Shown here one piece after another: positions 5,893 to 36,601 of a stretch of DNA of 64,000 nt (position 1 is its first letter; the number at the start of each line of letters is the position of its first letter). This DNA comes from an uncultured Planctomycetia bacterium (GTDB lineage Bacteria > Omnitrophota > Gorgyraeia > 1-14-0-20-64-10). Under the pieces are notes generated by a model that had not been told where the DNA came from, ran no database searches, and saw only the letters and a list, made by a program, of their open reading frames with translations. The translations under genes and the position numbers were made by a program. Location: positions 46,805 through 110,804 of the forward strand of contig CAYJVR010000005.1 in assembly GCA_964373715.1 (NCBI GenBank). Direction: 5' to 3'.

Positions 5893-5942
5893 AGAGATCT
5901 ATTGTCATTCGGATAGACCAGAAAAACCGGGAATCCGGACTT

Positions 5943-16019: not shown

Positions 16020-16056
16020 TTTTAAATGAATGCTTTTTTAGTGAATGACCCGACGG

Positions 16057-18089: not shown

Positions 18090-20537
18090 TTACGACAAAG
18101 AAGAAACGGCCGCCTTGCCGGTCCCGCCCTGAGAAGGGTGCTTGGAGTTAGATCCAATCTTTCCTAAAACCGCCTCCACCCGGTGAACCCGACCGTCCTC
18201 ATGGGGAGGAATCAAGTTGCCTTTCAAAACCTTGCCGTCCACGATCAACTGCTTGACGCCGTGAGAAACCCCGTCCGGGTTCTTAATCGTGATCTCGTAA
18301 ACAGAGCCCCGGAAAGGCCGGCGGATCTTCGCCTCTTTCCAGCTTTTCGGGATGCAGGGGTCCACCAAAAGCCCATGAAAATCGCGCCTGGCCCCTAAGA
18401 TCCACTCGGTGGCCCCCACGTACATCCAGGGGGTGGTTCCGGTGTTCCAGGTAAAAGCCCCCTCCCCGAACCGGTCGGCCGAACCGGGCCCGATGATGTA
18501 CTCCGCCCAGACGTACGGCTCCACCTTGTACTTGTCGTGATCCTCCTTGGCCTTCGAAATCGGCAAAAGCTTCGAGAAGGTGTCGTACGCGCTCTCCGCC
18601 CGTTTGATCGTGCAGTCGGCAACCACCTTAAACGCGCAGGCATGGGAGAAAACCGCCGCGTTCTCCTTGGTGCCCGGACAGAAAGAGGTGACGCGCCCGA
18701 TCCCCGGGTTGTACTCGGTGTAGCTGGGCAGGAACAGGGCCGGCCCGTAAGGAGTATCGAGATAGTTATCGATCTTATCCAGGATGCTGGAGAGCCTCTC
18801 CGGAGGGACAACCCCGCTCAAAATCGCCCAGGTCTGGGAGTTAAGCGGCACCTTGCCCTCTTTATTCTCCTGGGAACCGATCCGGCGGCCGTCGTCGTTG
18901 AAAGCGGCCAGGTACCAGGCGCCGTCCCATCCAATCTCATTGATGATCTTGGTCAACTCATCCGCTTTGGAGTGCATCTCATGCGCCACCGCGGTGTCCC
19001 CCAGGAACTCCGCTAATTCCTTCATATGCTTGCAGGCGCGCACTAGGGCCATCCCCAGCCAGACCGACTCTCCCTGGCCCTTGATGCCGACATGATCGTA
19101 GGCATCATTCCAATCGGCGTGGCCGATCAGCGGCAGGCCGTGCTGGCCGCGGGCGTGATAGATGTACCGGACGGCGCGCAGCGCGTGCTCGTAAACGGAG
19201 GCCTCCCCCTTGTCATGGAACGGGATCACCTTGTTCAGGAACTCGGTATCGCCCGTCTCTTTGACGTAGGCGACAATGCTGTACGGCAGCCAGACCGCCA
19301 CGTCAGCCTTTTTGATGACGCCGCCTACTCCCTGGTTCTCCCATGTCCCTTCCACTTCGGAAAAACCGGAAACGGCATGACCGCTCTCATACTGGTAGAA
19401 AACAAGCCTTTCCAGCTTCGCCCGGGCGGTGTTCAGATCAGCGCTGAGCAAACCCTCCACATCCTGCGCCGTATCCCTGTACCCCTGGCCCCCCTCCGCC
19501 CCGTGGTAATGGGAGGTCCCGCGCCAATGGGTGATCGCGTAAAGCTGGTATTTGCCCCACAGGTTGACCATGAGGTTCATCTTGGGATCCGGAGTCTCGA
19601 TCCAGACCTGCTCGAGCTGGTGTTTCCAATAAGCCTTGATCCCCTCGATCTCCTCCTTGCAGGTCTCCACCGATTTGAACCGTTTGACCAGGGTCGGCAC
19701 ATCGTTGCGGTTATCGGTGATGCCGGAGATAACCACAAATTCCTTCGTCTCTCCGGGATTGAGCGCCACGGTGCTCTGCAGGACAGCCACCATATCCTCG
19801 CCGCGGACCGTATGGTTCGAAAGTTTCTTGGCCTTCAGCCCCGCCGGATCGCTGATATCGCCGTACTGGCCGATAAACGCCTCCCTGCGGCATTCGTAGC
19901 TGTCCACCTTCAAGCTGGAGGAGAGGAAGCCGTACCCCGGCTTGTGCCAGGTCTTGAACGGCTGCTTGAAGGCGACAACCGTCTGCAGGTTTTTGTCGTA
20001 AAAAGAATCGTTGTAGAGGCAGAGGATGTTCCGGTAATGGGTCTCCAGGGCCACATCGCCGCAGACCAGCTCGACAAACGGGTAGACCTGGAGCCTCTTC
20101 CTGGCCTTCGAAGCGTTCGTGAGGGAGACGAGCCAGATCTCGACCGGAGTGTCCTTCGCCACGAAATAGGTCACCGAGCCCTTCACGCCGTTGGCGGAAG
20201 CGGATATCTTCGTGTAGCCGAAACCGTGCCGGCACTCCCACTGGTCCAGTTTCTGCCGGCTGGGCTGCCAGTTGAGGCTCCAAACCTTTTCCTTCCCGCC
20301 GGATTTCCGGGCAGGCTCTTTGATGAAAAGATAGCGGCCGGACCGGTCGTTGCTCAGGTGGTCCCACCGGTGGAGCCGGTAATACTTCGGGTCTCTTAAG
20401 TAAGAAAAACCTCCCCCCGTCTGAGAGATGAGGCAGTGGTAGATGTCGTTAAAGAGGTAATTAAACCAGGGACGCGGCGTATTCGGGTTGGTGACGATGA
20501 ATTCCCGCCCGTCTTTGCTAAAGTGTCCGTATTTCAT
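18090..20537 (-). CDS. Glycoside hydrolase family 94 disaccharide phosphorylase (cellobiose or N,N'-diacetylchitobiose phosphorylase; context favours chitobiose)
   Basis: 815 aa. N-terminus MKYGHFSKDGREFIVTNPNTPRPWFNYL and the catalytic-region motif HGLPLIGHADWNDAYDHVG are characteristic of GH94 (compare the Cellvibrio CBP motif HGLPLIGRADWND). The size fits the family. Confidence 0.9.
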   Translation of the reverse strand: MKYGHFSKDGREFIVTNPNTPRPWFNYLFNDIYHCLISQTGGGFSYLRDPKYYRLHRWDHLSNDRSGRYLFIKEPARKSGGKEKVWSLNWQPSRQKLDQWECRHGFGYTKISASANGVKGSVTYFVAKDTPVEIWLVSLTNASKARKRLQVYPFVELVCGDVALETHYRNILCLYNDSFYDKNLQTVVAFKQPFKTWHKPGYGFLSSSLKVDSYECRREAFIGQYGDISDPAGLKAKKLSNHTVRGEDMVAVLQSTVALNPGETKEFVVISGITDNRNDVPTLVKRFKSVETCKEEIEGIKAYWKHQLEQVWIETPDPKMNLMVNLWGKYQLYAITHWRGTSHYHGAEGGQGYRDTAQDVEGLLSADLNTARAKLERLVFYQYESGHAVSGFSEVEGTWENQGVGGVIKKADVAVWLPYSIVAYVKETGDTEFLNKVIPFHDKGEASVYEHALRAVRYIYHARGQHGLPLIGHADWNDAYDHVGIKGQGESVWLGMALVRACKHMKELAEFLGDTAVAHEMHSKADELTKIINEIGWDGAWYLAAFNDDGRRIGSQENKEGKVPLNSQTWAILSGVVPPERLSSILDKIDNYLDTPYGPALFLPSYTEYNPGIGRVTSFCPGTKENAAVFSHACAFKVVADCTIKRAESAYDTFSKLLPISKAKEDHDKYKVEPYVWAEYIIGPGSADRFGEGAFTWNTGTTPWMYVGATEWILGARRDFHGLLVDPCIPKSWKEAKIRRPFRGSVYEITIKNPDGVSHGVKQLIVDGKVLKGNLIPPHEDGRVHRVEAVLGKIGSNSKHPSQGGTGKAAVSSLS

Positions 20538-20592: not shown

Positions 20593-21798
20593 TTATAAAC
20601 CGGCGAAAACGTCGCGGATAACCAACGAGGCGGCTCCCACGGCGACGCAGTTCTCACCGAGGCGGGCCGGCACGATCTTCACGGCGTTAGCCATCTCTTC
20701 AAAAGAATACATGCGGATCATCTTCTTGACCGCTTCAATCAGAGCAGGGCCGGCAGCCTCAACACCGCCGCCGATGACGACCGCACCCGGGTTCAAGAGG
20801 TTGATCAGGAAAGCGATCCTGACCCCAAGCCGCTCACCGGCCTTCTGGATGACATCCAAAGCCAGCTTATCGCCGTCCTTCCCGGCCTGAATAACAGTTT
20901 CCAGGGTAATCGCTTCAGGTTTCCCTTTGGAGACATCCGACAATTTCGAAACGGCCCCGGCCTTGATCATCTCTCTGGCCTCATCCGGAATCCCGAGATG
21001 CGAAGCCCATGGCTTTAACGCGGAGATATTGCCGATCCAGACATCGGTTACATCAGCCTGCTCCTTGATCGACACCTCGCCGGCAGTGCCGCTGCTGCCG
21101 TGGTAAATCTCCCCGTTGATGATCATGCCGCACCCGACGCCGGAAAACATAAAAAGCATGATGTCCACATCGGTACCGGCACCGAGCGACCATTCGCCGT
21201 AGGCGGCGGTCGTCACGTCATGGTCCAGCTTGACCGGTATTTTGAACTGCTCCTGAAGAAGGGCCGTTATCGGCACGTAGATCGAGGCGACCCCTTCGGT
21301 GCAACGGATGGTGCCGACCTCCCGGTCAATCACTCCGGAGGCACCGATCTGGATGCCTCGCACCTTCTTCACATCGAGATTCGAGGACTTTACCACCTGC
21401 TCCACTTGGTCGATAATGGTTTTCACCACATTATCGGCCGTGTCGCGGGGCCGCAGCGCCTTGGACTGCGCGATGATGGCCCCTTCCAAATCGGAAAGGA
21501 CCGCCCTGATCGTAAACACTCCGAGATCCACCCCGATCACATAGGCCGATTTCGGGTTCAGGACAACGATCGTCGGCCTGCGGCCGCCGGAAGAGATGTC
21601 GAGCCCCTTCTCAATCACGATCCCCTGCTCGATGAAGTTGTTGACGTAGTTGGAAACCGTAACGATGTTCAGCTTGGTCAATTTGGAAATGTCGGTGCGG
21701 GAGATCGGGCCGTAGCGTTTGATCGCCTCCAAAATGGAAACGTTCTTCCGCTCCCGTTCAGTCAACGAATGCTCGTCTGTTTCAACGCCTCGAATCAA
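20593..21798 (-). CDS. ROK-family transcriptional regulator (NagC/Mlc-like: N-terminal HTH plus a ROK sugar-kinase-like domain)
   Basis: 401 aa. HTH region (ILEAIKRYGPISRTDISKLTKLNIVTVSNYVNNFIEQGIV) followed by a ROK fold with a Gly-rich region (VIGVDLG, GASGVID, GCGMIING). Lies directly upstream of the GH94 gene. Confidence 0.85.
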   Translation of the reverse strand: MIRGVETDEHSLTERERKNVSILEAIKRYGPISRTDISKLTKLNIVTVSNYVNNFIEQGIVIEKGLDISSGGRRPTIVVLNPKSAYVIGVDLGVFTIRAVLSDLEGAIIAQSKALRPRDTADNVVKTIIDQVEQVVKSSNLDVKKVRGIQIGASGVIDREVGTIRCTEGVASIYVPITALLQEQFKIPVKLDHDVTTAAYGEWSLGAGTDVDIMLFMFSGVGCGMIINGEIYHGSSGTAGEVSIKEQADVTDVWIGNISALKPWASHLGIPDEAREMIKAGAVSKLSDVSKGKPEAITLETVIQAGKDGDKLALDVIQKAGERLGVRIAFLINLLNPGAVVIGGGVEAAGPALIEAVKKMIRMYSFEEMANAVKIVPARLGENCVAVGAASLVIRDVFAGL

Positions 21799-22079: not shown

Positions 22080-23099
22080 TTACCCCCTCTTGAGCAATTC
22101 CTGATAGCACTCGCCTAAAGTCTTCCAAACCGTCTGCGGGTCCTCCGCCCGGATCGAGATGTACGCGGCCCCGTAGTAGCTCCAGGCGGCGAAATTGCGG
22201 ATCCCCGCCGAGTAGCCGGTCTCGATCGCAAGACGGATCTTCTCCTCTTCCCCGCTGGGAATATTGAAGTTGAGTATCCAGAGGTGCGGCTCCTTCCCGT
22301 ACTGGTCCGCCAATTTCTTGATCCGTTTGGCGAAGCGGTCCACAAACGGCCCGACATCGCTCTGGTGCGGCCTCCAGTACGGGTCCGTGCCTATGGACCA
22401 CAGTGTCGGGATCTGCGCTACTTTCTCCCAATCGTTTACCGTCGAGGAATTCTCAAAAGGAAGCAGGCAGACGGACGCCTTCAGCCCTTGCTGAACAGTC
22501 GCGTCGCAGAGAAAATGGGTCGTCTCCACCAGGCACTCTTCTTTAAATGACCTGACCTGAGGGGTCATCCGGTCCGGCATCGGTAGTCCATGCCTCTTTT
22601 TGAATTTCTCCCGGCAGAGCGAGCAGCGGCAGGCCCAGAGCTTGGGGATTTGGTCCTGCCCCTCCGGCTCCGGATAGATCATGAAATGGGGCTCATCCCA
22701 GAAAAGAACATCTGCCCCCAGTTTTTTGCAGGTCCGGATCCATTTCAGGAGGTAATCCCGGAAAACCGGATGGTTCGGGCAGGCTATGGCCAACGACTCC
22801 CCGAGGGAACTGATCTGTCTCAGCGAAAGATTTTTGGCCACAAGGCTGGAGTAGGTCTCCCCCCCAAAGACCTGCCCCACCGCCCAGGGATCCATCCAAA
22901 CTTCCAGGCCGAACTCATGGCACCCCTTGATGATCTCTGCGAAGGCCCCCTGGTAGAACTCCAGGTCCTCCTCGCTGAAGGTCAAAACGATGTAGTTGCA
23001 GCCGGCATCCCGGATGACCTTCAGATCCTCCCGGACCCGCCAGGGAATCCTGTTGCCATAATAGCTGATGCCGAGTTTCACCAGTGTGGGCATGGACAA
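22080..23099 (-). CDS. Hypothetical TIM-barrel protein (sugar-phosphate isomerase/epimerase-like or glycosidase-like), 339 aa
   Basis: ORF in the nag locus between the ROK gene and nagA. N-terminus LVKLGISYYG... with alternating beta/alpha character. I am not confident of the family. Confidence 0.6.
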   Translation of the reverse strand: MSMPTLVKLGISYYGNRIPWRVREDLKVIRDAGCNYIVLTFSEEDLEFYQGAFAEIIKGCHEFGLEVWMDPWAVGQVFGGETYSSLVAKNLSLRQISSLGESLAIACPNHPVFRDYLLKWIRTCKKLGADVLFWDEPHFMIYPEPEGQDQIPKLWACRCSLCREKFKKRHGLPMPDRMTPQVRSFKEECLVETTHFLCDATVQQGLKASVCLLPFENSSTVNDWEKVAQIPTLWSIGTDPYWRPHQSDVGPFVDRFAKRIKKLADQYGKEPHLWILNFNIPSGEEEKIRLAIETGYSAGIRNFAAWSYYGAAYISIRAEDPQTVWKTLGECYQELLKRG

Positions 23100-23132: not shown

Positions 23133-24326
23133 TTAGAAACCGCAACGGACAGCCCCTTGCTTCCACGCGGTTTTTCCTCTGATGATGGTTTCCGTAACCT
23201 GGTACTTTGAGTCCCATAATACCAGATCGGCCAGTGCTCCGGGCGCCAGCCGGCCCCTGAACTTCTCAAGGCCAAGTGTGCGGGCGGGGTTCAGCGTCGC
23301 CATCCGGATCGCCTCCGGGAACGTGATCCCCATAAACCCGATCGCGCGGCGCAGCATCCCGTCAAGCAGCAGCGTGGTGCCGAAAAGACTGCCGCGTTCC
23401 GACCCTCCCTTGAGTTGCCAAGCGGAACCGTCCTTCGATTCATACTCGCGGCCGTCGTACGCATAGATGCCGTCCGGAAGCCCCGCGGCCGGCAGCGCGT
23501 CGGTGATCAACACCAGCGCCTCCGGCTTCAGCACGCGGCCGGTCCAGCGCAGCACCTCCGGGTGGACGTGTACGCCGTCGGTGATCAGCTGCACCGTCAC
23601 CCCGTGATCGGTCAGCACAGCGCCGAGAGCGCCCGGCTCCCGGTGATGGAGCCCCCGCATCGCGTTGTACAGATGGGTGACATGGCGGATCCCCTTCTTG
23701 AAACCGGCCTTCGCCTCATCGAACGTGGCGTCGGTATGCCCGAGCGATCCGACCGCGCCCGCGTCTTCGAGCACCGGCAGCAAATCGAGCGCGCCGGGCA
23801 ACTCCGGCGCCATCGTGAACATACGGAACGCCCCCTTGCCGAGCCCGAGCAGGTCCGACAGGTTCTTCCGATCGGGCAACCAGATCCGATCATGCCGGAT
23901 CAGCCCCGCGCGGGCGGGGTTCACGTACGGCCCCTCGACGTGGAGGCCCAGTATCTCGGCCCCTTCGGCGCCGCGGCCGTTGCAGAGCTCCGCGGCGATT
24001 TCGAGGTGGCGGTTCTGCTTCAATTCCCGGCAGACGACCGATGTGGCGAGAAACGAGGTGGTGCCGTGCGCGGCGAGCGTCCGGGAGACCGCCTGCACCG
24101 CTTCAGGGGTCCCTTCCATCAGGTCCCGCCCTCCGGCCCCGTGGATGTGGAGGTCAATCATGCCGGGCGTGATCCATCCGGAAACGGTTTCAGAAGGATC
24201 TTTCGGATCTTGGTCTGCGCGGCCGGCCTCCCCCGCGTAAAAGATCATGTCTCCGTCGATACCGACGGCGCCGTCCTCGATGACCTGCTCCGGCGTGACA
24301 ACCTTACCGAGAAACCACCTCTTCAT
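23133..24326 (-). CDS. nagA: N-acetylglucosamine-6-phosphate deacetylase
   Basis: 397 aa. Amidohydrolase motifs DLHIHGAGG, GHTDATF, HLYNAM and ITDAL. Typical NagA length. Confidence 0.9.
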   Translation of the reverse strand: MKRWFLGKVVTPEQVIEDGAVGIDGDMIFYAGEAGRADQDPKDPSETVSGWITPGMIDLHIHGAGGRDLMEGTPEAVQAVSRTLAAHGTTSFLATSVVCRELKQNRHLEIAAELCNGRGAEGAEILGLHVEGPYVNPARAGLIRHDRIWLPDRKNLSDLLGLGKGAFRMFTMAPELPGALDLLPVLEDAGAVGSLGHTDATFDEAKAGFKKGIRHVTHLYNAMRGLHHREPGALGAVLTDHGVTVQLITDGVHVHPEVLRWTGRVLKPEALVLITDALPAAGLPDGIYAYDGREYESKDGSAWQLKGGSERGSLFGTTLLLDGMLRRAIGFMGITFPEAIRMATLNPARTLGLEKFRGRLAPGALADLVLWDSKYQVTETIIRGKTAWKQGAVRCGF

Positions 24327-24399
24327 GAGTTCTTCTCCGCCTTGGGTCCTGCCGCCTGCGGACTGCTCCGCCGTCCGTCCTCGTCCGCTATAAAAGCGT

Positions 24400-24640
24400 G
24401 GCGGACTGCGGGCGCGGCGGCGGAGGCCTCTCCTCCGGCGTCACCCGCGGCTGCCCTATACCACCTCTCAATCGCAATAAGCAACTGACGCGAGGGGATG
24501 TCCGGCAGAGACATCCCCGTCGGAAGCTGCTTACAAACCGCGGGAGGGGGCGAGGGGATGGTTTCGAAGGCCATCGCCGGACCGAACGGGCACGGATCGT
24601 CCGCCAAAGTTCTGTGGCGGACGAGAGTGAGGGACGGCGT
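24400..24640. repeat. GC-rich intergenic repeat region between the permease and nagA. It has hairpins GTCCGC-N12-GCGGAC (24406-24429), GGAGG-cctct-CCTCC (24443-24457) and GTCCGCCAAAGTTCTGTGGCGGAC (24591-24614), plus a GGTTTCGAAGGC ... GAGAGTGAGGGACGG module also found at 28580-28607
   Basis: Read directly. The 380-bp non-coding gap inside an otherwise compact same-strand gene string is unusual. Confidence 0.5.
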
Positions 24641-24708
24641 TGAGCGCGGCGGCCGCGCAGGGGCCGCAAGCGGGCCTGAGAAACTTTCCCCTCGGCCCCG
24701 CATCGTCA

Positions 24709-26001
24709 TCAGCCGACGGTGGAACCGCGGGTGAGCCCCTCGATGATGTAGCGCTGGAAGCAGAGGAAAACAACAATGACAGGAAGGGAGGTGATCGCCG
24801 AGCCGGCCATCAGATGGACCCAATCCACGCCGTGAAGCGACTTGTAGAGGGCCAAGCCGACCGGCAGCGTGCGCATCTCGACCGTGTTGGTCAGAAGGAA
24901 CGGGTAAAGGAATGTGTTCCAGGAACCCATGAAGGTGTTGATCCCGACAACGGCCAAAGCCGGCTGGGAGAGCGGGACGATCACGCGCGTGAAAATCTGG
25001 AATTCGGAAGCCCCGTCAATCCGGGCCGCCTCCTCAACCGCCAAAGGCAACTTGGAGATGTACTGCCGCATGAGGAAGATGTTAAACGGGGCCACCAGGT
25101 TCGGCACAATCAGCGCCCAGTAGGTGTTCAGCCACCCCAGGTGCTTCATCAGGATGAAGACCGGCACCATCAGCACCTGCGGCGGGATCGCGATCGAACC
25201 GACAATCATGAAGAACATCAGCTTCTTGAACGGAAAGTTCCGGCGGGCGAAAGCATATCCCACCATCGTCGAGAAAAGAAGGTTGCCTAAGGTGACCGCC
25301 AGCGCTATGCCGAAAGAGTTGACGGAATACCGGCCGAACGGGCCGCTGACCAGCACATCCCAGTAGTTGTTCAGCGTCCATTTCCTGAAGACAAACCGGA
25401 TATCATCCAGATAGACCGTTCCGGCCCCCTCATTGAAGCTTAAGGCGAGCTCTTCCGCCTGCCGCTCCGGCAGGTTGGGACTGAGCATCGAGAGGTTGAA
25501 GGCCTTCATCGGGATCCGGACCGTCTCCCAGGAGGTCTTCAACCCGCCGCGCAGAAACCGCTGGATCCCAAGGCTGGCGCTGCGGCCCTTCACGTCCGCC
25601 AGCTCAAGCGTGAAATCCTCCCCGCCGATCTCCCCCTTGACCTTGAACTCAAGGTAAGAAAATTTCCGCATATCCTGCCCGACGCGTGTGACCCACCGGG
25701 CTGGGCCGTCCCCCTTCTCATAACGGATCACCATCCGGCGGTTCTGCCGCAAGACCGGCTCCGCCGGATAAAAAGAGATCTGCACCTTTGAGGTGCCCTC
25801 CGCGCTGACCATAATCGGGCCGCCGATGGAGTTCGTGCTCCCGATCTCAAAGTCAGCCACAAGCACCTCTTCAATCCGCTGGAACAGGGTCCCGGTCGGC
25901 TTCATCGAGGTGTAGAACATCAGGACCAGCGGCAGCAAGGTCAAGACGAGCATCACCGTGAGAATACTGATCGCCACGCTAATCGCCAGCCGCTCACGCA
26001 T
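24709..26001 (-). CDS. CUT1-family carbohydrate ABC transporter permease (MalG/UgpE-like) with a roughly 170-aa periplasmic insertion that carries the carbohydrate-binding-like module
   Basis: 430 aa. TM1, then an insert (about 25390-25900) containing LEFKVKGEIGGEDFTLELAD ... SWETVRIPMKAFN ... LALSFNEGAGTVYLDDIRF, which matches the module of the 40596-45684 paralog array. Then a typical permease core with an EAA-like loop (AVEEAARIDGASEFQIF). Confidence 0.85.
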   Translation of the reverse strand: MRERLAISVAISILTVMLVLTLLPLVLMFYTSMKPTGTLFQRIEEVLVADFEIGSTNSIGGPIMVSAEGTSKVQISFYPAEPVLRQNRRMVIRYEKGDGPARWVTRVGQDMRKFSYLEFKVKGEIGGEDFTLELADVKGRSASLGIQRFLRGGLKTSWETVRIPMKAFNLSMLSPNLPERQAEELALSFNEGAGTVYLDDIRFVFRKWTLNNYWDVLVSGPFGRYSVNSFGIALAVTLGNLLFSTMVGYAFARRNFPFKKLMFFMIVGSIAIPPQVLMVPVFILMKHLGWLNTYWALIVPNLVAPFNIFLMRQYISKLPLAVEEAARIDGASEFQIFTRVIVPLSQPALAVVGINTFMGSWNTFLYPFLLTNTVEMRTLPVGLALYKSLHGVDWVHLMAGSAITSLPVIVVFLCFQRYIIEGLTRGSTVG

Positions 26002-26025
26002 TTCGGAAAACCTCCCCGGCGTTCA

Positions 26026-28284
26026 TCAGGCCGGCTCCTCGTATTTGAACAGGCGCATCTGGACCCACGAGAAACACATCGTGATCATAAACAACAGATA
26101 CCCAACCGCCGCCGCCTGCCCCATGTCGAAACGCTGGAACCCGGCCTGATACAGGTACCAGACAACCGTCGTGGTCGCCCCCAGAGGACCGCCCCGGGTC
26201 ATGGCGAAAATCTCCGGGAAAACCTGAAAGGTATGGATCGTGTTGATCACCACGGCCAGCAGAACAATCGGCCGCAGCTGGGGCAGCGTGATGTGGCGGA
26301 ACTTTTGCCATTCGTTGGCCCCGTCAATCGAGGCCGCCTCGTACAACTCGACCGGGATCGTCTGCAGGCCGGCCAGGAACAAAACCATGTAGTAGCCGAA
26401 ACTCGCCCAGATGTTCATAATCATGATCGCCGGCAACGCCCACTTCGTGTTCAAGAGCCAACTTGGGTTCGGAACCGGCAGGTGGAACATTTGCAGAAAC
26501 TTGTTGATCAAGCCGTCCGGCGCGTAGAGGTAAGTAAAGATCGTCGCGATGACGATCACGGACGTAGCCACCGGAAGGAACATGCCTGCCTGGTAAAGCT
26601 GTTTGAACGGCACCTTGACATTGATCAGCACCGCCGCGAAGAGGGCCAGCATCATCGTGAATGGTATCGTGCCGACAGCGAAAAGGATCGTATTCCCGAG
26701 GGCCTGAAGGAAGGCCGGGTCTCGGATTACATACCAGAAATTACCGAGCCCCACGAAAGCCATTTCGGAGCTCAGAAGGTTATACCGGGAGAAACTCAGC
26801 ACGAAGGAATGAAGCAGAGGGATCAGGTTAAACCCGAAGAAGGTGATCAGCCACGGCGCCAAAAAGGTAAGGTCGATCGCGGTGTTGTACAAACTCAAGC
26901 TCTTCCGCTTGACCATCCCGACCTTACGCCGGCGGATGATGGCGTAGGCGACAAACACCCCGGCCAACCCCAAGAGGAAACAGCCGAACACCACGACATC
27001 GCTGATCCGCCCCTCCATCTTCTGCTCCTGGAGCAGAGGGGTAATCTCGGCCGAGGCCTTCTTGAGCATTGCCTCCGGATCCCTATCGTTTAAGATCACC
27101 TCTTCAATCGCCCGCGTAATCTTCTCCTGGATCTGGGTCCAGTTCGGATGGGCGGGCGGAGCTACCGCGTAGCGAAGCTGCTCGAACATCATCCGGTGTT
27201 CTGGGTGGCTCCTGTAATAAGGATGTTCCATCGCTGCCTTGACCGTTGGAACGATGTTCCGCTGGGCCTCCACGATGGACATCGCCTGCTCCTCCTGTAT
27301 AAGGAAGAGCGAAAGCTTTAAGGCGGCCTCCGGATACTTTGACCCCTTGAGCACCACGATCATCTCCCCGCCGGCAAACGACGCCGGGGTGCCGCGTGCG
27401 GCGGAGGGTTTCGGCAGGAGGCCGACGCCGTAGTTCAAGGTGGGGTTCATCCGCGGAATCAGCGCGAAATTCCAGGAACCGGAGATTTGAATCCCCACCT
27501 TCCCTTCGGCAAAAAACTGGTTAACCTGTTCCTGATGGTGAACCAGCGAGTAAGGCTTTAACGAAGCGTAGAACTTGAGCGCCTCCACCATCGGCGGTTC
27601 ATCCAGAACGCATTTCGTCCATTCCGGATCGAGCACATTCGCCCCATTGCCCCAGGCAAACGGCAGGAACTCCTGCCAAGGGGAATACGGCTCACTCACA
27701 TGGATGCCGAACCCGTAAATATCGGGACCCAGAGCATCCACCGCCTTGGCGGCATTGAGCAACTCCTCCCATGTGGTGGGAGGCTTATCGGAGTCAAGGC
27801 CGGCCTGGGCAAAGAGATTCCTGTTGTAAAAAAAGAGCCGTGTCCCTGCCATCCAGGGAACACCGTAGATCCTGTCCTTGTAGGTGACCGGGTCCCACAA
27901 AAGGTACTGATCCTTAATCGGGGCCACCTGATCGGTAACGTCCCGCAGAACTCCGGAAGAGGCGAACTGAGGCACCATATCCGTGCCGAGTTCGGCCAAA
28001 TCCGGGGCGTTCCCGGCTGCGATCGAGGTGATCAGCTTGTCGAGCCCGAAATCCCAGGAAAGCTGCTGAAAACGGACCCTGATGCCGGGGTTCTGCCGCT
28101 CGAACTTGTCCAGCAGAGAGCGCATGAGTTCTTCGCCCACGGAAAATTCCCAAAAATCAATCGTCACTTCAGCGCTTGCAGGGGACAGGAGACAGGGGGC
28201 AAGGGGAAAGAGGAGGAAAAAGAAAACGACGGCTGCCGAAAGAAGAACGAAAAGCTTTTTCAAACCGTGAATTCGATCGGACAC
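26026..28284 (-). CDS. Fused carbohydrate ABC solute-binding protein (N-terminal, about 430 aa) and MalF/UgpA-like permease (C-terminal)
   Basis: 752 aa. Signal peptide, then an SBP domain (NAPDLAELGTDMVPQFASSG ... GGEMIVVLKGSKYPEAALKL), then six TM segments with an EAA motif (EAASIDGANEWQKFRHITLPQ). The frame is continuous. Confidence 0.85.
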   Translation of the reverse strand: MSDRIHGLKKLFVLLSAAVVFFFLLFPLAPCLLSPASAEVTIDFWEFSVGEELMRSLLDKFERQNPGIRVRFQQLSWDFGLDKLITSIAAGNAPDLAELGTDMVPQFASSGVLRDVTDQVAPIKDQYLLWDPVTYKDRIYGVPWMAGTRLFFYNRNLFAQAGLDSDKPPTTWEELLNAAKAVDALGPDIYGFGIHVSEPYSPWQEFLPFAWGNGANVLDPEWTKCVLDEPPMVEALKFYASLKPYSLVHHQEQVNQFFAEGKVGIQISGSWNFALIPRMNPTLNYGVGLLPKPSAARGTPASFAGGEMIVVLKGSKYPEAALKLSLFLIQEEQAMSIVEAQRNIVPTVKAAMEHPYYRSHPEHRMMFEQLRYAVAPPAHPNWTQIQEKITRAIEEVILNDRDPEAMLKKASAEITPLLQEQKMEGRISDVVVFGCFLLGLAGVFVAYAIIRRRKVGMVKRKSLSLYNTAIDLTFLAPWLITFFGFNLIPLLHSFVLSFSRYNLLSSEMAFVGLGNFWYVIRDPAFLQALGNTILFAVGTIPFTMMLALFAAVLINVKVPFKQLYQAGMFLPVATSVIVIATIFTYLYAPDGLINKFLQMFHLPVPNPSWLLNTKWALPAIMIMNIWASFGYYMVLFLAGLQTIPVELYEAASIDGANEWQKFRHITLPQLRPIVLLAVVINTIHTFQVFPEIFAMTRGGPLGATTTVVWYLYQAGFQRFDMGQAAAVGYLLFMITMCFSWVQMRLFKYEEPA

Positions 28285-28379
28285 AAACAGACTCTCCTCG
28301 GTTGATGAAAGCTTTTAGTCTACCACCGCTTCCATACAATCTCAACCGAACACTGGACTCCTGGAAGGGTATCGGCTGA

Positions 28380-28740
28380 CGCACCGCTCGTCGCCCCCAG
28401 CGAGGGCTCCTCGCTCCGGCATCGGCCTCGCTCGTCCGCCAACGATCGTTGGCGGACACCCTGCCCGCTCAGCCTTCTGACGGTGCGCTATCCGACACCC
28501 TTCCGGGAATCTTCCCAACGTCACCCGTGCTTAAGCAGCTACATAAACAATGTCCAGCCTAAAAAAAAGGGGCGGGGGGAGGGTTTCGAAGGCGAGAGTG
28601 AGGAACGGGGACGGAAGTGTGTGTCCGAGGGACGTCGAACGAAGCGAGCGGGCACGGCTCCCGAAGGGAGAGCGAGCAAGTTCGTCGAGCGCAGTCCGGC
28701 TCGCAGGGACGGACAAGCGACCCAAGGACACACCTTCCGT
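28380..28740. repeat. Highly structured GC-rich intergenic region. It has a perfect 24-nt palindrome GTCCGCCAACGATCGTTGGCGGAC (28433-28456), a GGGTTTCGAAGGCGAGAGTGAGGAACGG module (28580-28607), and nested inverted repeats (GTGTGTCC...GGACACAC, 28616-28731). It shares modules with 24400-24640
   Basis: Read directly. Track ORFs here are R/K-rich junk. The region is flanked by divergent genes. Confidence 0.5.
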
Positions 28741-29480: not shown

Positions 29481-31409
29481 TCACCGCTCTGCGGTTTGAG
29501 CAACCGTATTCTGCTTGGACAATTCAAGAGAATCAAGCGATGCCCCCTTTGCGGAAAGGGGCTGAGCGGAGAGGACATTCCCCTTGCGGACTACGAGCTT
29601 ATGGTTCATCTTTTTCGTGATGTAGGCCATAGCTAACCCATCCTGGTCTATGTCGCCCAGCTCCACCTCGGCAAACACCTTATCTTTGACGCTGAGCAAC
29701 ATATTCTCGCCGGCTTTCGCCCACGGCGCATTTTCCACGGAAAGAACCAAGAAACCACCTTTCTTATCAACCCGGCGGACCTTCACAGCCGACGTTTGCC
29801 CCGGAGAGGGGCTTGTTGAAATAGCCCCGATTGCTTTCGAACCCGGTCCTGAAGGAACCTCACTATCAACGGGAACTGACGGCATCTCTTCCCGCGTACC
29901 CGGCTCTTTCGGAAATTCCGCCGGTCTGGACATCTCTCTTTTGAGATCGTTAAGTGCCGACTCACTATTCTGAAGCTGGCCGGTCAGGGTTTTGATCCGC
30001 TCTTCATAACCGGTCTTAAATACCTCACGCTCCTCAAGGCTCTGCTGGTAAGCGGTCTGCGCTTTCTGGAGATTCTTTTCCTTGGCCTTCAGCTGCTCCT
30101 CCTTGGAAAGAATCTCCTTCTGCCGTTCCTGGAGCTCGGACTGCGCCGACGCAAGCTTATCTGACAATTCCTTCATCGCAACCTGTGCCGCTGTGAGATC
30201 CTGCGAAGAAACCTTCCCCTTACTCTGCGTCTCTTTCAAATCTTCCTGAAAACGGGTCAACTCCTGCTGCCGTTCCCAAACTTCCTTCTCCAACGAGGCA
30301 ATCAGTCCCGCAGATTTCTTCCGTTGGGCATAGAGTTCTTCAATCTCCTCTTCCTTGATGGCCAAACCCTCTTTTTTCTCCTGGATCTCCTCCTTCAGCG
30401 CCAGCAGCTCTTTTTCAAACTTAGCCCGGCCGTCCCAATCCCATATTGTCTGCAGCTGTTTTTGAAGGCTTACCAGTTCCTCTTTTTGTTTCTCTTTTTC
30501 CTTCACCAGCGATGCATTAAGGTCCTGCATCTGCCGGAGTTCAACGACTCTGGTTTCGACTCCTTTCTCGGTAAGAACGAGCTTCCTCTGCAAGCTTTCG
30601 ACATTTTCTCTGAGCTTCAGGTTTTCTTTCTGTTCAACATCGAACTGTTTCCGAAGAGCCGCCAGCGTATCTGTCAATATTCCGACCTGCCGGCGGACTT
30701 GTTCCTCCTTTGCCTTGAGAATACTTTCTTCCATCTTCGAAGCAGCGCGCGTGACAACAGCCCCTGGGTTCTCTAAAACAGGCTCCAGAGCAACATCCTG
30801 TGCCCTGGCCGGGACCGCTTCCACGGACGTTTCGGAACCGAAGACTTGCGCGAAGCGGGTCCAGTCAATCTCCGCTTGGCGGGAACCGTCCGACAACTGC
30901 TGGAGGAACTCTTTCAAGAGAGAGACCAAATCCCCGGCTTCCGGATGGCCGGTAAACTGCGATTCCGTTATCCCCAGAAGGGGAACCGCCCAACGGCGGG
31001 CGTAATTGATCTCTTCGGCAGGACCGTAATAATGGATCTGCTTTACCTGAGGCTGTTCGGCCAACTCAATCAGGGCGGAGGTCCATGAGCCGTCGTTCAG
31101 CAGGATATGGGTGCGCTGGGACGCCACATCCCGGAGAACGGGGATATTCCGGACTTTCTCGTCGCTCACCACAACCCAGGTTCCGGGATCCGGCTTAAAG
31201 AGTGCCCTCACCCGGGAAATGGCCTTTTCCTTCTCTCGCTCACTCGGAAGACCCGCTCCTCCGAAAACCGGGGAAGCCGCCTCAAAAGCCGCCGTTGTGC
31301 GGACCGGCGGAACAAACGCGATAATTAAAAAAAGAACGGGAACCGCAACTGATTTTCTGAAAATCAGGCTCACATGCTCTTTCTCCGACTGCTTGAGCCG
31401 GGCATTCAC
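29481..31409 (-). CDS. Membrane-anchored or secreted long coiled-coil protein (642 aa), hypothetical
   Basis: N-terminal hydrophobic segment, about 300 aa of heptad-like E/K/Q/L-rich sequence, and a C-terminal beta-rich domain. Confidence 0.7.
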   Translation of the reverse strand: MNARLKQSEKEHVSLIFRKSVAVPVLFLIIAFVPPVRTTAAFEAASPVFGGAGLPSEREKEKAISRVRALFKPDPGTWVVVSDEKVRNIPVLRDVASQRTHILLNDGSWTSALIELAEQPQVKQIHYYGPAEEINYARRWAVPLLGITESQFTGHPEAGDLVSLLKEFLQQLSDGSRQAEIDWTRFAQVFGSETSVEAVPARAQDVALEPVLENPGAVVTRAASKMEESILKAKEEQVRRQVGILTDTLAALRKQFDVEQKENLKLRENVESLQRKLVLTEKGVETRVVELRQMQDLNASLVKEKEKQKEELVSLQKQLQTIWDWDGRAKFEKELLALKEEIQEKKEGLAIKEEEIEELYAQRKKSAGLIASLEKEVWERQQELTRFQEDLKETQSKGKVSSQDLTAAQVAMKELSDKLASAQSELQERQKEILSKEEQLKAKEKNLQKAQTAYQQSLEEREVFKTGYEERIKTLTGQLQNSESALNDLKREMSRPAEFPKEPGTREEMPSVPVDSEVPSGPGSKAIGAISTSPSPGQTSAVKVRRVDKKGGFLVLSVENAPWAKAGENMLLSVKDKVFAEVELGDIDQDGLAMAYITKKMNHKLVVRKGNVLSAQPLSAKGASLDSLELSKQNTVAQTAER

Positions 31410-31963
31410 TTTTTCAATTCGGTCCTGGTTTTATCCTCTTTTTCAGTAACCTTCCGCAGGGCCTTTTCCGTGACCAACTGGCCCTGGATCGCGTCCCTCT
31501 GGGAAAGCAAAAGATTGTTCTGCCGGGTTAACTGCTCAATGACGGCACTGAGCCTTTTCTTCTCATCGGCCATGGACTGCTTCTCCACCTGCACCCTCTT
31601 CAACTGCGAAGACAAGCTGTCTCTCTCTTCAAGAAGCGTCTTTTTCGCCTGGTTTAAAATCGACTGCTCCTTCTGAATCCGGGAATGAACCGCCTTTAAT
31701 TCCGTGAATTTCTGGTTCAGTTCATTGTAGTCCTGCTGGAGCATTTCCGACTGATAACCCAATGAAGCGTACTCTTCGGAGAGCAGCCTCTTCTTCTCCC
31801 GTGTTTGAGCCAACTGCTTCGACATATTTCCGTTAAAGTAAGCGAGAACGAAAATAGTGGCTACCCACAACAGAGAGCCGCTGATGTAAACGATCCGCCT
31901 TTTCCAGCGTGACGGGGGGACGGGGACTGGAAGAGGGGTGCCCACCGGCTGGTGCTCTACCAC
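31406..31963 (-). CDS. Single-pass membrane coiled-coil protein (185 aa), hypothetical; translationally coupled to the downstream gene (4-nt overlap)
   Basis: TM segment IVYISGSLLWVATIFVLAYF followed by coiled coil. Confidence 0.65.
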   Translation of the reverse strand: MVEHQPVGTPLPVPVPPSRWKRRIVYISGSLLWVATIFVLAYFNGNMSKQLAQTREKKRLLSEEYASLGYQSEMLQQDYNELNQKFTELKAVHSRIQKEQSILNQAKKTLLEERDSLSSQLKRVQVEKQSMADEKKRLSAVIEQLTRQNNLLLSQRDAIQGQLVTEKALRKVTEKEDKTRTELKK

Positions 31964-33441: not shown

Positions 33442-34607
33442 TTTGTGATGATGCGCGGCGGCCTGACCGACTTAGGCCGAGGAGCATTCTTTTGCGTATG
33501 GACAAGGACCGAAAGAACCCTGTAGGCCTCGTCAGGATCTTTGGTGTGGATAAAAACACCTCGGAGCCGTTCCATCTCAGCCGCCGAAAACATCTTCAAG
33601 GTATCCCTGAGAATCTCTCCGATCATCTCCTCCTTTCCGGAAAACGAGGGGGTCTTCGAGACAGCGAAGGGGATCGTCTCGACGCCGATGTAAAAAGATG
33701 TCCCCTCCTGCTTCGCCCGGTTCCGGACAATCTGGGAAACGGAGGCTATATCGTCCGGAACATTTCGGTATGTCATGGAGGCAATTTCCGTGTTTCTGAT
33801 CGGCCTTAACCCGAACACCCTGACACCGCTGGCGGTCACCTGCCCGTTTTCAAACCACCACGGCTCAAAACGAACCAAAACAGGGCCATTAACCACCGGT
33901 TTCCCATCAGGCCGCAGTCGATTCTTGGCGAAGGTTTCCAACGGAGGCAAAACAACCTTTTCCATCATCTCCACGTAAGAGGATAAATTCCCGTCCCAAG
34001 TCTTGCCGGCCTTGCGCTCCTCGGGAGGCAGCGCGTAAGGCTCCACATTCACGGCGAACGCAACCCCCAAGCTTCCCAAATCAAGCTGTCCCAGCTGGGA
34101 AATCAGGTCCTTGTAATGATAATCCACGAATTCCCAGTTCTTCGGCCAATCGTAATTGCCGTCAATAAACCCGATCGTCCTCAAACCCGCTTCAGAAGCC
34201 TGCAGGAGAACCGCCTGCTTCTCCTGCCTGTTCATCTGCCGGAACGGATATCCGCAGATCCAAACGGTATCAATGCCGGCCCGGACAGCGAGAGGGAAAA
34301 AATACTGGTTGTTCACGATAGGCTTCGGATTCCAGACAACGAGTGAAATGCCGCGGTTGGGACCCAGCTTCTGCCGCAAAACGGCCAATTGACCGTCGGG
34401 CTCTTCAAAGGAGGCCGCGCGGACAAGAGGAACAGCGGATAAAAAAATAGCGGCGGCAAAGAAAAAGATCCTCTGCCGCCGCCTGATCGCTTTTATGAGC
34501 CTCATTCGCTCCCCGGAAACACCCTTAAGCTGAAGCCCCCTGGCCGGCATATTGTTTACTGCCGGAATTGGACTTGCCAAGCGCTGAAAGCAGCTGATGG
34601 ATCTCAT
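33438..34607 (-). CDS. Secreted hypothetical protein of the glycoside-hydrolase-like TIM-barrel family; the true start is probably the Met at about 34505 (MRLIKAIRRRQRIFFFAAAIFLSAVPLVRA)
   Basis: Resembles the 316-aa protein at 39649..40599 and the central domain of the 764-aa protein (W.W... IDT ... GFIDGNYDWP compared with YALAGDPRWG). 4-nt overlap with the upstream gene. Confidence 0.6.
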   Translation of the reverse strand: MRSISCFQRLASPIPAVNNMPARGLQLKGVSGERMRLIKAIRRRQRIFFFAAAIFLSAVPLVRAASFEEPDGQLAVLRQKLGPNRGISLVVWNPKPIVNNQYFFPLAVRAGIDTVWICGYPFRQMNRQEKQAVLLQASEAGLRTIGFIDGNYDWPKNWEFVDYHYKDLISQLGQLDLGSLGVAFAVNVEPYALPPEERKAGKTWDGNLSSYVEMMEKVVLPPLETFAKNRLRPDGKPVVNGPVLVRFEPWWFENGQVTASGVRVFGLRPIRNTEIASMTYRNVPDDIASVSQIVRNRAKQEGTSFYIGVETIPFAVSKTPSFSGKEEMIGEILRDTLKMFSAAEMERLRGVFIHTKDPDEAYRVLSVLVHTQKNAPRPKSVRPPRIITN

Positions 34608-36516
34608 TCTTCATCTGTTCCGTGACGGCCCAGGTCTCCTTGATGAAAGAATCCTTGGACGCCGCCTTATGCGCCTGGGTATAATCCTCGATCACTTCGG
34701 CGCCGCGCTTGTCGTCCTTCTCCTTGGAAATCTGGACGTCCTGAGCGATCTTCTCCTGCATTGTGCTCAACTCCTCGAGCAGGGCGACCGGCTCCGCCTG
34801 CGGGAATTCCTGCTTCAGCAACGTTCTTTCATGTTCCCACCGGGCGTTGGAACCCGCGGCGCTTAAAAGCTGCTTAGCCGCCTCTTTGAGGTTCGAGGAA
34901 TTCTTGGAAGCCAAAACCTGAAGCTCCCTCTTCAAACCAAGAAGCACGTAATACCGGATATAGAAGGTATACGCCTCGACCCCTTTCTTCCTGGCGAACT
35001 CGAGAAGCACATTTTTCCCGAGACCCTCGATCTCGTTCGAGGTGTAATAATCTTTCTGGGCCTTGACCTCCAAGCGGCGGCGCGCGCCGACCATCATGTC
35101 TACGATCTCGGGCCGGAAAACTTCAAAGTCGAACGTGGACCTCTTGGCCTTGTTGCGCTTCTGGTACTTGCCCTCATTGCGCTTAACCATGTAGATATTG
35201 TCCGAGAGAACCCACCCCGGCATAATCTCCATATAAGCGGGGGAAACACCCGGATAGGCCGCAGCCGGCGTGTTGATGAGAGAAAACGGGAATTCCACCT
35301 TCTGCGGCAGCATCGTGGCGCCGCTGGCGATGATCGTATAGGGGGAGCCGGTCAAATCGGTGGGGAATTTTATGTTCACGCCCAAACCGAAGAAGGTCCC
35401 CTCCCCCGGCCAAATCTCCTGATCGGGCGCTTTCGCCGTATGGTTGGAACCGACGTTGGCCCCATAGCCGACGTTTCCCTTTCCTTCCGGCCAGAGAGCG
35501 GCGATTAAGAGGGCCTGGTGGTGAAACCCGACGAACGGCCCCAACAGCGCGCTCGTCACCTCCCCTTCGGCAACACCGGTGTTCGGCCCGAGGATGGAAT
35601 GGGTCACCTTGCCGTGCCGTTCGACATGCGAGTATTCCGTCAGATGGGAGGAATCCACAATCGCCCCGCTCGAAACCTCGGAACCCCACTGAAGGATGCT
35701 GTGCTTGACGATCGCGCCCTGAGAGATCTCGGTCGACTCGTCCGAGCTGCTTAAGACCGTGGCGTGAGCCACCAGCTGGGCGCTGTCGATATGGGCTGAC
35801 TCTCCCAAAAAGACACCCACCACCTTAGGGGTGTGCAGGATCGTGGCCGAAGGGCCGATCACGTTGCAGGGGGAGGAAACCTCCTTGACGTACGCCTCGA
35901 TCCCCTTGGCATAGTTCTCCAGCAAGGTCTTATCACCGCGGGAACGGGTGAGGACCCATGCGTCATCAATCGTGAGCTCGGCGAAAAGCTGGACCTCGCG
36001 GCCGCCCGTTTCAATGGCGATCAAAACCTCGAGGCCGTTGGCAAAATTCTCCGTCCCGTCAATCGTCAGGACACCGACATCGAAAAGAACGGCCCCCTCT
36101 CCGATCACGCTGCGGTTGACTAAGCGGACGTTGCGGACAAACGCGTTTTTGCCGACGACGCAGTGCGCCAGCGTGACGTGGGACAAGCCGGTCGGGAAAA
36201 CAGTGCCCTCAACCGCCACCGTCCCGGCAAAAGAAGACAGAAGGACCGGCCCGGCGAAATGGCAGCGGTTTACCCTCTTCGGGTCAAAGCCGGCGCCCGC
36301 CCAGACCTCTTTCCAGTTCTCGGCGGTATTGCCCAGTGCTTTTAGCTGCTTGAGTTGGGCGGCCGTCAACGGCTTATAGCCGGCCTTTTTCAGCCGCGCC
36401 GGCGTGGAAGTAAGAAGAGAATAAGAAGCCTTCGCCTTGGAAACACCCTTTACCAGATCGGAAGAAGAACGGGCCTTTTCAAGAGCTTTGAGAAGATCAT
36501 GATCCGGAAGATTCAT
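34525..36516 (-). CDS. Left-handed beta-helix (hexapeptide-repeat) protein that I identify from memory as DUF4954-like; a stand-alone paralog of the C-terminal module of the 3358-aa giant protein
   Basis: 663 aa. Alignable over essentially its whole length to giant-protein residues encoded at about 6600-8560 (for example HSILGPNTGVAEGEVTSALLGPFVGFHHQALLIAALWPEGKGNVGYGANVGSNHTAKAPDQEIWPGEGTFFGLGVNIKFP against ...GSVLGPNTGVAEGEVTAALVGPFVGFHHQALLIAAVWPEGKGNIGYGANVGSNHTGKEPDQEILPGEGTFFGLSVDIKYP). Lies immediately downstream of nagB. Confidence 0.8.
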   Translation of the reverse strand: MNLPDHDLLKALEKARSSSDLVKGVSKAKASYSLLTSTPARLKKAGYKPLTAAQLKQLKALGNTAENWKEVWAGAGFDPKRVNRCHFAGPVLLSSFAGTVAVEGTVFPTGLSHVTLAHCVVGKNAFVRNVRLVNRSVIGEGAVLFDVGVLTIDGTENFANGLEVLIAIETGGREVQLFAELTIDDAWVLTRSRGDKTLLENYAKGIEAYVKEVSSPCNVIGPSATILHTPKVVGVFLGESAHIDSAQLVAHATVLSSSDESTEISQGAIVKHSILQWGSEVSSGAIVDSSHLTEYSHVERHGKVTHSILGPNTGVAEGEVTSALLGPFVGFHHQALLIAALWPEGKGNVGYGANVGSNHTAKAPDQEIWPGEGTFFGLGVNIKFPTDLTGSPYTIIASGATMLPQKVEFPFSLINTPAAAYPGVSPAYMEIMPGWVLSDNIYMVKRNEGKYQKRNKAKRSTFDFEVFRPEIVDMMVGARRRLEVKAQKDYYTSNEIEGLGKNVLLEFARKKGVEAYTFYIRYYVLLGLKRELQVLASKNSSNLKEAAKQLLSAAGSNARWEHERTLLKQEFPQAEPVALLEELSTMQEKIAQDVQISKEKDDKRGAEVIEDYTQAHKAASKDSFIKETWAVTEQMKNEIHQLLSALGKSNSGSKQYAGQGASA

Positions 36517-36601
36517 TCAAGCCTCCAAATTCCAAGTGGGCCGCCGGAGAAAACCTCTCCGGGCGGCCCACTTTTTGTGAACAGGTTTCCCTTTATCGGG
36601 T

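Follow-up and report, generated by a model that had tools for sequence, protein, structure and literature searches.

A substrate-binding protein joined to a UgpA/MalF-type permease in one Omnitrophota gene, a candidate tethered-receptor sugar importer

Results

The fused gene and its product

We analysed a stretch of 64,000 nucleotides, called the window below, from an uncultured Planctomycetia bacterium placed by GTDB in the Omnitrophota (Gorgyraeia, 1-14-0-20-64-10). It corresponds to positions 46,805 to 110,804 of contig CAYJVR010000005.1 (assembly GCA_964373715.1), and coordinates are given within it. The gene under study occupies 26026-28284 on the minus strand and joins a sugar-binding protein to a permease subunit of the ATP-binding cassette (ABC) importers. 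It starts with GTG, preceded at 8-9 nt by a Shine-Dalgarno-like GAGGAGAG, and encodes 752 residues with zero internal stops. The original prediction, made from the letters of the sequence, described a single 752-residue open reading frame (ORF) without stop or frameshift, encoding a signal peptide, a CUT1-type binding protein and a MalF-like permease with six transmembrane (TM) helices and an EAA loop. The features of the gene are the following:

28317-28345, minus strand: promoter-like site, sigma-70-like and weak (TTGAGA-17-TAGACT with TG), a candidate from a consensus scan
28171-28284, minus strand: Sec-type signal peptide, residues 1-38, from hydropathy (K9K10 in the n-region, hydrophobic core, ASA/EV motif)
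27025-28170, minus strand: periplasmic substrate-binding domain, SBP_bac_1/CUT1, residues 39-420, from Pfam, PDB matches and AlphaFold2
26893-27024, minus strand: junction, made of a tether of about 10 residues (QEQKMEGRIS), a linker TM helix and the basic stretch RRRKVGMVKRK, from hydropathy, AlphaFold2 and alignment
26029-26892, minus strand: UgpA/MalF-type permease core with six TM helices, residues 465-752, from Pfam, NCBIfam and PDB
26269-26340, minus strand: EAA coupling loop EAASIDGANEWQKFRHITLPQLRP, residues 649-672, located by its motif

The ORF listing agrees with a single uninterrupted frame, and hydropathy, Pfam and NCBIfam agree on a signal peptide followed by a CUT1 binding protein. 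The two Pfam domains proposed as a check, SBP_bac_1 and BPD_transp_1, were both found. SBP_bac_1 spans residues 54-334 (expect value (E) 1e-44, 154 bits against a cut-off of 26) and SBP_bac_8 residues 57-362 (E 7e-40), and the NCBIfam MalE and GanS models carry the domain to about residue 415. More than 50 sugar-binding proteins in PDB align over residues ~37-420, among them 5ci5 (E 8e-52), Lin1841 (5ysb, E 2.6e-34) and the Bdellovibrio protein 6ffl (E 4.8e-14). The receptor half is of the SBP_bac_1 (MalE/UgpB-like) class that defines CUT1 receptors. In the permease half, BPD_transp_1 covers residues 545-739 (E 2e-15) and the best NCBIfam model over residues 474-746 is UgpA (122.7 bits, 2.5e-35, model positions 17-288 of 295), followed by GlcT and then by MalF with 82.8 bits, in the conserved core only; in PDB this half matches SugA (8ja7_A, E 1.4e-24). 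The permease is UgpA-like; it has six helices and lacks the P2 loop of MalF. The earlier description of it as MalF-like holds at the level of the UgpA/MalF type, and its six helices and EAA loop are indeed present; what had been missed is an additional helix upstream, which brings the hydrophobic helices downstream of the binding domain to seven by both hydropathy and AlphaFold2.

The full-length AlphaFold2 model is confident, with a predicted local distance difference test score (pLDDT) of 85.6, mostly above 90 in the binding domain, and a predicted template modelling score of 0.80. It places a signal-like helix at residues 2-32, the binding domain at 40-418, a tether of about 10 residues, a helix at 429-454 and the six-helix core from 465. 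At the N-terminus, all orthologues are signal-peptide-like, with AxA-type motifs at the ends of these segments. The signal peptide is probably cut at ASA/EV, and the receptor domain would then probably be tethered at its C-terminus only. Anchoring as a lipoprotein was considered and rejected: LAPC at residues 28-31 is a non-canonical lipobox, and orthologues have no conserved cysteine.

The junction

The linker helix corresponds to residues 429-454 (nucleotides 26923-27000), with a hydropathy peak of 2.46. As the gene joins a periplasmic domain to a permease whose N-terminus is cytoplasmic, an extra TM helix is required between them. The junction consists of such a helix, followed by a stretch that obeys the positive-inside rule, and it is therefore not a read-through spacer between two genes. 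When 99 full-length homologues were aligned with the query, the tether contained no indels and varied in sequence; the linker helix kept its position and hydrophobicity while its sequence drifted, and the basic flank persisted. A fixed helix, basic flank and tether length amid drifting sequence are what would be expected under selection on topology.

Two ways in which the halves might be expressed separately were considered. An internal start for a separate permease was rejected, Met 457 (VGMVK) not being conserved in orthologues. A terminator uncoupling the two halves was not apparent within the fused gene either, with 5 terminator-like sites against 6.3 expected by chance.

The fusion is not an assembly artefact

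We then asked whether ordinary binding-protein and permease genes could have been merged by a lost stop codon or a frameshift. This explanation draws some support from the origin of the DNA, a metagenome-assembled genome (MAG), and from one broken copy among the relatives, which indicates that errors or pseudogenes do occur in this gene family. Among four related MAG loci, three have an intact fused gene with conserved synteny; in the fourth (L004, JACPXR010000065.1, positions 427-2500) the copy is disrupted within the binding domain. About 60 residues are lost there and the frame changes near position 780, leaving ORFs at 427-804 and 983-2500. The damage lies away from the domain junction, and L004 has here either a pseudogene or an error in the local assembly.

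Against an artefact stands, first, an independent assembler: the Logan assembly of run ERR4904390 contains window positions 25168-28723 (3,556 bp) as 100% identical DNA, with the same 752-residue product. Moreover, about 100 clusters of orthologues, which stem from many samples and pipelines (NCBI, ENA, JGI and Logan assemblies), keep the fusion at identities as low as 49%, and at least five other phyla also have fused relatives. Finally, the conserved helix at the junction is topologically required in the fused protein, whereas separate genes would not need one, and the closest truly split system (a 427-residue binding protein and a 290-residue permease) lacks such a helix region. The two outcomes that the original prediction had named as speaking against it, a stop codon removed by an assembly error and orthologues that are uniformly separate, were thus not what we found. 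An artefact is effectively refuted, its probability being close to nil, and the fusion is confirmed as genuine and selected; its topological problem is clearly solved, and its operon is coherent.

Distribution of the fused architecture

About 100 clusters that share the three Pfam domains of the query were retrieved from 5.8 billion proteins by a word-indexed search; their members are ~700-780 residues long and have 49-96% identity with the query, and one more cluster has 34%. The matches listed included 99 full-length fused homologues (34-96% identity, four data sources), and the named orthologue clusters are nearly all Candidatus Omnitrophica/Omnitrophota. For breadth, 1.84 billion representatives of 50%-identity clusters were scanned exhaustively with HMMER. 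Half of the 150 best representatives (75) are full-length fused proteins of 692-865 residues, 27-52% identical to the query, and nearly all of these 75 have a hydrophobic linker helix at the equivalent position of the junction. With a profile built from 51 distant fused proteins, the best 120 matches were all fused; the named members belong to Chlamydiota, Elusimicrobiota/Endomicrobia, Wallbacteria, Riflebacteria and Caldiserica. By these searches, the fusion is a large multi-phylum family, mostly in uncultured lineages and generically annotated. The earlier view that such a fusion is uncommon for CUT1 systems is correct for characterised systems only, and not in sequence space.

When the receptor and permease halves were ranked separately, fused and split relatives interleaved in similarity. 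Among unfused binding proteins, the nearest to the query (46% identity) belongs to a MurQ-like/AnmK amino-sugar locus, where it is part of a classical three-gene operon that contains, besides the 427-residue binding protein and the 290-residue permease, a second permease of 260 residues. This interleaving, together with the closest split receptor being in a classical operon, suggests, as far as similarity ranking can indicate, that fusion or fission took place more than once, and fusion may even have occurred repeatedly and convergently.

Distant fused homologues adjoin a MalG-type partner of ordinary size (273-275 residues) and GH94 enzymes. In an Elusimicrobiota locus (L006, GCA_016722575.1, positions 349-16250), the fused gene adjoins a GH94 protein of more than 2661 residues that resembles cyclic β-1,2-glucan synthase, and three separate proteins bearing CBM11, CBM30 or CBM9 surround the fused system. 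In a Wallbacteria locus (L007, GCA_002838975.1, positions 4997-14120), its neighbours are a GH144-like 'Glycoamylase' gene on one side and GH94 and GH1 genes on the other, which suggests loci for β-1,2- or β-1,4-glucooligosaccharides.

The partner permease and its insert

Downstream of the fused gene lies a second permease gene with an insertion:

24709-26001, minus strand: MalG/UgpE-type partner permease of 430 residues, 24 nt downstream of the fused gene, from Pfam and NCBIfam
25378-25884, minus strand: β-sandwich insert of ~170 residues (~40-208) between TM1 and TM2 of the partner, in the first periplasmic loop

The partner matches Pfam BPD_transp_1 (1.5e-18) and the NCBIfam models UgpE, GlcU and MalG, and its EAA loop lies at residues 323-347. 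The fused protein and this adjacent 430-residue protein thus provide the two different EAA-bearing permeases (MalF/UgpA and MalG/UgpE types) of a CUT1 importer. The insert passes Pfam CBM30 (1.9e-8, 34.9 bits against a gathering cut-off of 27). The AlphaFold2 model of the partner has a pLDDT of 81.6, and of about 90 in the β-sandwich (residues 45-205). In a Foldseek search the insert matched CBM11 (1v0a, E 5e-9, TM-score 0.68) and CBM30 (2c24 and 1wzx, E ~1e-7), and it combines the β-sandwich fold with the family-level profile match by which CBM30/CBM11 domains are recognised. It is conserved in more than 100 Omnitrophota clusters, with D110, R112, F114 and D136 invariant and W158 and E183 nearly so. 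A partner with this CBM-like insert adjoins the fused gene in all four related loci (L001-L004), and the insert is absent from the 273-275-residue partners of the distant fused systems. A literature search returned no description of a CBM within an ABC permease loop, an absence that is no proof of novelty. The partner with its insert is a more unusual feature than the fusion itself.

Gene neighbourhood and likely substrate

In L001-L004, which come from species-representative MAGs, the gene order is a divergent HAD phosphatase gene, the fused gene, the partner with its insert, NagA (at variable occurrence), a conserved 339-residue protein, ROK, GH94 and a 606-residue protein. The corresponding genes of the window, and a further amino-sugar gene, are:

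23133-24326, minus strand: NagA, N-acetylglucosamine-6-phosphate deacetylase (NCBIfam TIGR00221, E 3e-87, 292.9 bits against a cut-off of 225.65)
22080-23099, minus strand: conserved 339-residue protein, function not assigned by matches (sub-threshold Pfam TIM-barrel hint)
20593-21798, minus strand: ROK protein, either a NagC/Mlc-like regulator or a sugar kinase, with a winged helix at its N-terminus (Pfam ROK 4e-43, and HTH_24)
18090-20537, minus strand: GH94 disaccharide phosphorylase of 815 residues, cellobiose/chitobiose type (Pfam Glyco_hydro_94 1e-103, and GH94 supersandwich)
16057-17877, minus strand: 606-residue protein, syntenic in L001, L003 and L004, with no Pfam, NCBIfam or PDB match
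34525-37369, minus strand: NagB, glucosamine-6-phosphate deaminase (equivalog-level NCBIfam score), and a neighbouring DUF4954/hexapeptide-repeat protein

Between the stop of the partner permease and the start of NagA lies a gap of 382 nt (24327-24708) with no convincing terminator; in L001, where NagA is also found, its gene overlaps the end of the permease gene. The ROK protein matches NCBIfam NagC at 8e-55, under the equivalog cut-off. The GH94 protein scores 502 bits against the clostridial cellobiose phosphorylase 3qde, ~400 bits against other cellobiose phosphorylases, and 413 and 410 bits against the chitobiose phosphorylases 1v7v and 8bou. The 339-residue protein has no PDB sequence match and no NCBIfam match, and its syntenic counterparts in L001, L003 and L004 are 65-78% identical to it; this protein and the 606-residue protein may be missing pathway steps, for example a sugar-1-phosphate mutase or a kinase analogue. 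NagB, 8 kb upstream of the fused gene, supports an amino-sugar theme in the neighbourhood.

This context of GH94, NagA, a NagC-like ROK protein and NagB suggests a β-linked disaccharide substrate, which the CBM11/30-like domain of the partner also fits. We infer a β-linked disaccharide or short oligosaccharide, either N,N'-diacetylchitobiose, which is favoured because of the Nag genes, or cellobiose/cellodextrin, which is favoured because of the GH94 score.

Other features of the window were recorded as well. Beyond the divergent HAD phosphatase gene, two adjacent minus-strand genes (29481-31409 and 31406-31963) encode E/K/Q/L-rich proteins of 642 and 185 residues, coiled-coil-like by eye from their composition, each with an N-terminal hydrophobic segment and without a Pfam match. 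Very long minus-strand ORFs lie at 5943-16019 (3358 residues), 45815-53128 (2437), 53085-56819 (1244) and 56839-63963 (2374), in keeping with reports of giant genes in Omnitrophota. An Rfam search across the whole window gave no match.

Energy supply

As the original prediction had stated, no ABC ATPase gene is present in the window: a motif scan of the 64 kb found neither an LSGGQ signature nor a credible Walker A motif, and a tblastn search of it with E. coli MalK, using an approximate query sequence, gave a best E of 0.34. Nor was an ABC ATPase found within ±10 kb of L001-L004 or next to the distant fused genes. CUT1 operons that lack an ATPase gene and are served by an orphan multitask ATPase such as MsmX or MsmK are well documented (PMC7658222). 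As neither the window nor the surroundings of the orthologues yielded an ATPase gene, it is reasonable to assume, by analogy, that an orphan MsmX/MsiK-like ATPase encoded elsewhere serves the fused system.

Discussion

On the domain matches, the alignments and the structure models, we consider it likely that the fused gene encodes a natural single chain of receptor and translocator subunit, belonging to a type I (CUT1) ABC sugar importer of Omnitrophota. The proposed mechanism is as follows. A Sec signal peptide would lead the N-terminus across the inner membrane and be cleaved at ASA/EV, and the binding domain would fold in the periplasm. About 10 residues further on, the extra helix would bring the chain back to the cytoplasm, where it would be fixed by the basic residues RRRK...KRK, and a standard UgpA/MalF-type permease of six helices with its N-terminus inside would start after this basic stretch. 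The fused subunit would pair with the adjacent MalG/UgpE-type permease; because every related locus has a separate MalG-type partner gene in synteny, the gene content points to a heterodimer with exactly one short-tethered binding domain per complex. The Venus-flytrap domain would capture the sugar and dock in cis on its own translocator, and docking would set off ATP hydrolysis in a dimeric ATPase of the MalK/MsmX/MsiK type, encoded elsewhere, to which the EAA loops of both permeases would couple. Tethering would thereby provide a 1:1 stoichiometry, a very high local concentration of the receptor and no receptor loss.

Covalent tethering in a CUT1 system has already been established experimentally, with biochemical and structural characterisation, in Bdellovibrio bacteriovorus, as reported in the passages of PMC6906923 that cite Licht et al. 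2019 (Res Microbiol 170:1-12): a MalE homologue is fused there to MalF, fixing a 1:1 ratio, and soluble MalE raised the ATPase activity further. The two systems share, according to this description, an SBP_bac_1-family domain N-terminal to a MalF-type permease on one chain, one receptor per transporter and a separate MalG-type partner. They differ in sequence: the PDB entry 6ffl, the MalE domain of the Bdellovibrio fusion (388 residues, titled 'maltose/maltodextrin transport permease homologue'), aligns to residues 40-414 of the fused protein with 54.6 bits (E 4.8e-14), against 179.5 bits for the best free binding protein. They probably differ also in substrate, which is an α-glucan in Bdellovibrio, whereas the GH94/NagA context points to a β-linked disaccharide here. 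In addition, the permease half is UgpA-like here and its partner has a CBM-like domain. A single characterised system from Bdellovibrionales appears in a 2026 review of glycoside transporters, whose text does not contain the word 'fused'; the tethered CUT1 design is therefore known but little discussed.

The further stimulation by soluble MalE shows that a free receptor can engage such a transporter, and one could imagine that the fused protein is a polyprotein precursor, from which the binding domain is released by proteolysis near the linker helix, so that the fusion only secures co-translation and synthesis at 1:1. Nothing direct supports this scenario. The tether has no conserved cleavage motif and its sequence varies among orthologues, and it is short and of conserved length, as a functional tether would be. 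Moreover, OpuA and GlnPQ are described as working with their domains linked, and the Bdellovibrio fusion as fixing a 1:1 ratio. We regard a cleaved precursor as improbable and retain the tethered receptor.

Like other importers in which a substrate-binding domain is fused to a transmembrane domain, the Omnitrophota protein is one polypeptide whose fusion is conserved among orthologues. With OpuA of Lactococcus lactis and with GlnPQ, still the paradigms for how tethered receptors work, it shares, as these are described, a receptor short-tethered to its translocator, delivery in cis and a fixed stoichiometry. The receptor class is another one, since these OTCN and PAAT systems use OpuAC and SBP_bac_3 (polar amino acids) domains, whereas only SBP_bac_1 and SBP_bac_8 were detected here. 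By its gene content, the system would not be of the homodimeric kind either: their homodimeric membrane subunits give two or four receptors, in contrast to the presumed heterodimer with one. In the Omnitrophota fusion the extra helix solves the topology; the OpuA binding domain is C-terminal to the transmembrane domain.

The split CUT1 importers served by orphan ATPases, such as AraNPQ and GanSPQ with MsmX in B. subtilis and the MsmK systems of S. pneumoniae (PMC7658222), belong to the same families and also have operons without an ATPase gene. The same is described for the chitobiose systems DasABC and NgcEFG of Streptomyces, with MsiK encoded elsewhere (for DasABC-MsiK, in the relevant part of PMC6167110). 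In all of these, however, the receptor is separate, free or lipid-anchored, and the permeases lack a CBM-like insertion. As for the insert itself, the E. coli MalF P2 loop is likewise a folded periplasmic domain in a loop of a CUT1 permease and, as outlined in PMC6906923, contacts the binding protein; the Omnitrophota insert differs in lying in the TM1-TM2 loop of the MalG-type subunit and in being CBM11/CBM30-like. By analogy with P2, it could scaffold the receptor.

Several observations weigh against parts of the proposed importer. The cognate ATPase gene was not found within the 64 kb searched. The hydrophobic core of the signal peptide is long (~23 residues), so that this segment could persist as a second anchor, and the copy in L004 is disrupted. 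The substrate is ambiguous as well: NagA was not detected in the syntenic loci L003 and L004, the GH94 enzyme scores higher against cellobiose than against chitobiose phosphorylase, and the best-matching structurally characterised binding proteins take other sugars, Lin1841 for example binding β-1,2-glucooligosaccharides.

A different role for the tethered domain was also considered, namely that it acts mainly as a sensor or regulator, for instance of β-glucan or chitin fragments, or that the complex is no importer. The very large GH94 proteins, similar to cyclic β-1,2-glucan synthase, and the CBM-bearing proteins that adjoin some fused homologues hint at roles in glucan metabolism beyond plain catabolism. 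On the other hand, both permease halves keep the full type I importer core with its EAA loop, the cytoplasmic catabolic enzymes of the operon need an imported substrate, and the fused protein has no signalling output domain. A sensor seems to us most improbable, and import by a tethered receptor remains the reading that we adopt.

The fused family recurs in Omnitrophota, Chlamydiota, Elusimicrobiota/Endomicrobia and Bdellovibrio. We speculate, considering it rather unlikely, that the fusion and the insert form a self-contained capture machine in the periplasm, of a kind not yet described for ABC importers. The CBM11/30-like module of the MalG-type permease would bind or align a β-glucan or chitin oligosaccharide chain, or scaffold the receptor like MalF-P2, and pass the ligand on to the receptor, which the tether would keep about 10 residues away from the membrane; the fused family would moreover reflect adaptation in bacteria that are ultra-small, host-dependent or predatory and in whose tiny periplasm free binding proteins would be inefficient.

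The fused gene is a new, uncharacterised member of the tethered-receptor type I ABC importers, with a precedent in CUT1. Neither it nor the insert of its partner overturns current understanding, and the fusion itself will be only mildly surprising to specialists; the CBM-like insertion and the breadth of the hidden family are worth following. If functional, the CBM-like domain would be a new kind of accessory domain for ABC importers. A heterodimeric CUT1 importer with one short-tethered receptor would be a natural 1:1 system and an attractive subject for structural and single-molecule studies of how the receptor docks; such studies have so far relied on OpuA, GlnPQ and one Bdellovibrio protein. 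For this purpose the fused family provides numerous sequences, a confidently predicted structure and a linker of conserved design, with a tether of about 10 residues, one TM helix and a basic patch. Finally, NCBI labels the fused proteins 'extracellular solute-binding protein' and JGI labels them 'permease'. Under these names, the subunit counts in transporter inventories will be wrong for Omnitrophota, Elusimicrobiota, Chlamydiota and similar phyla as long as the fusion goes unrecognised.

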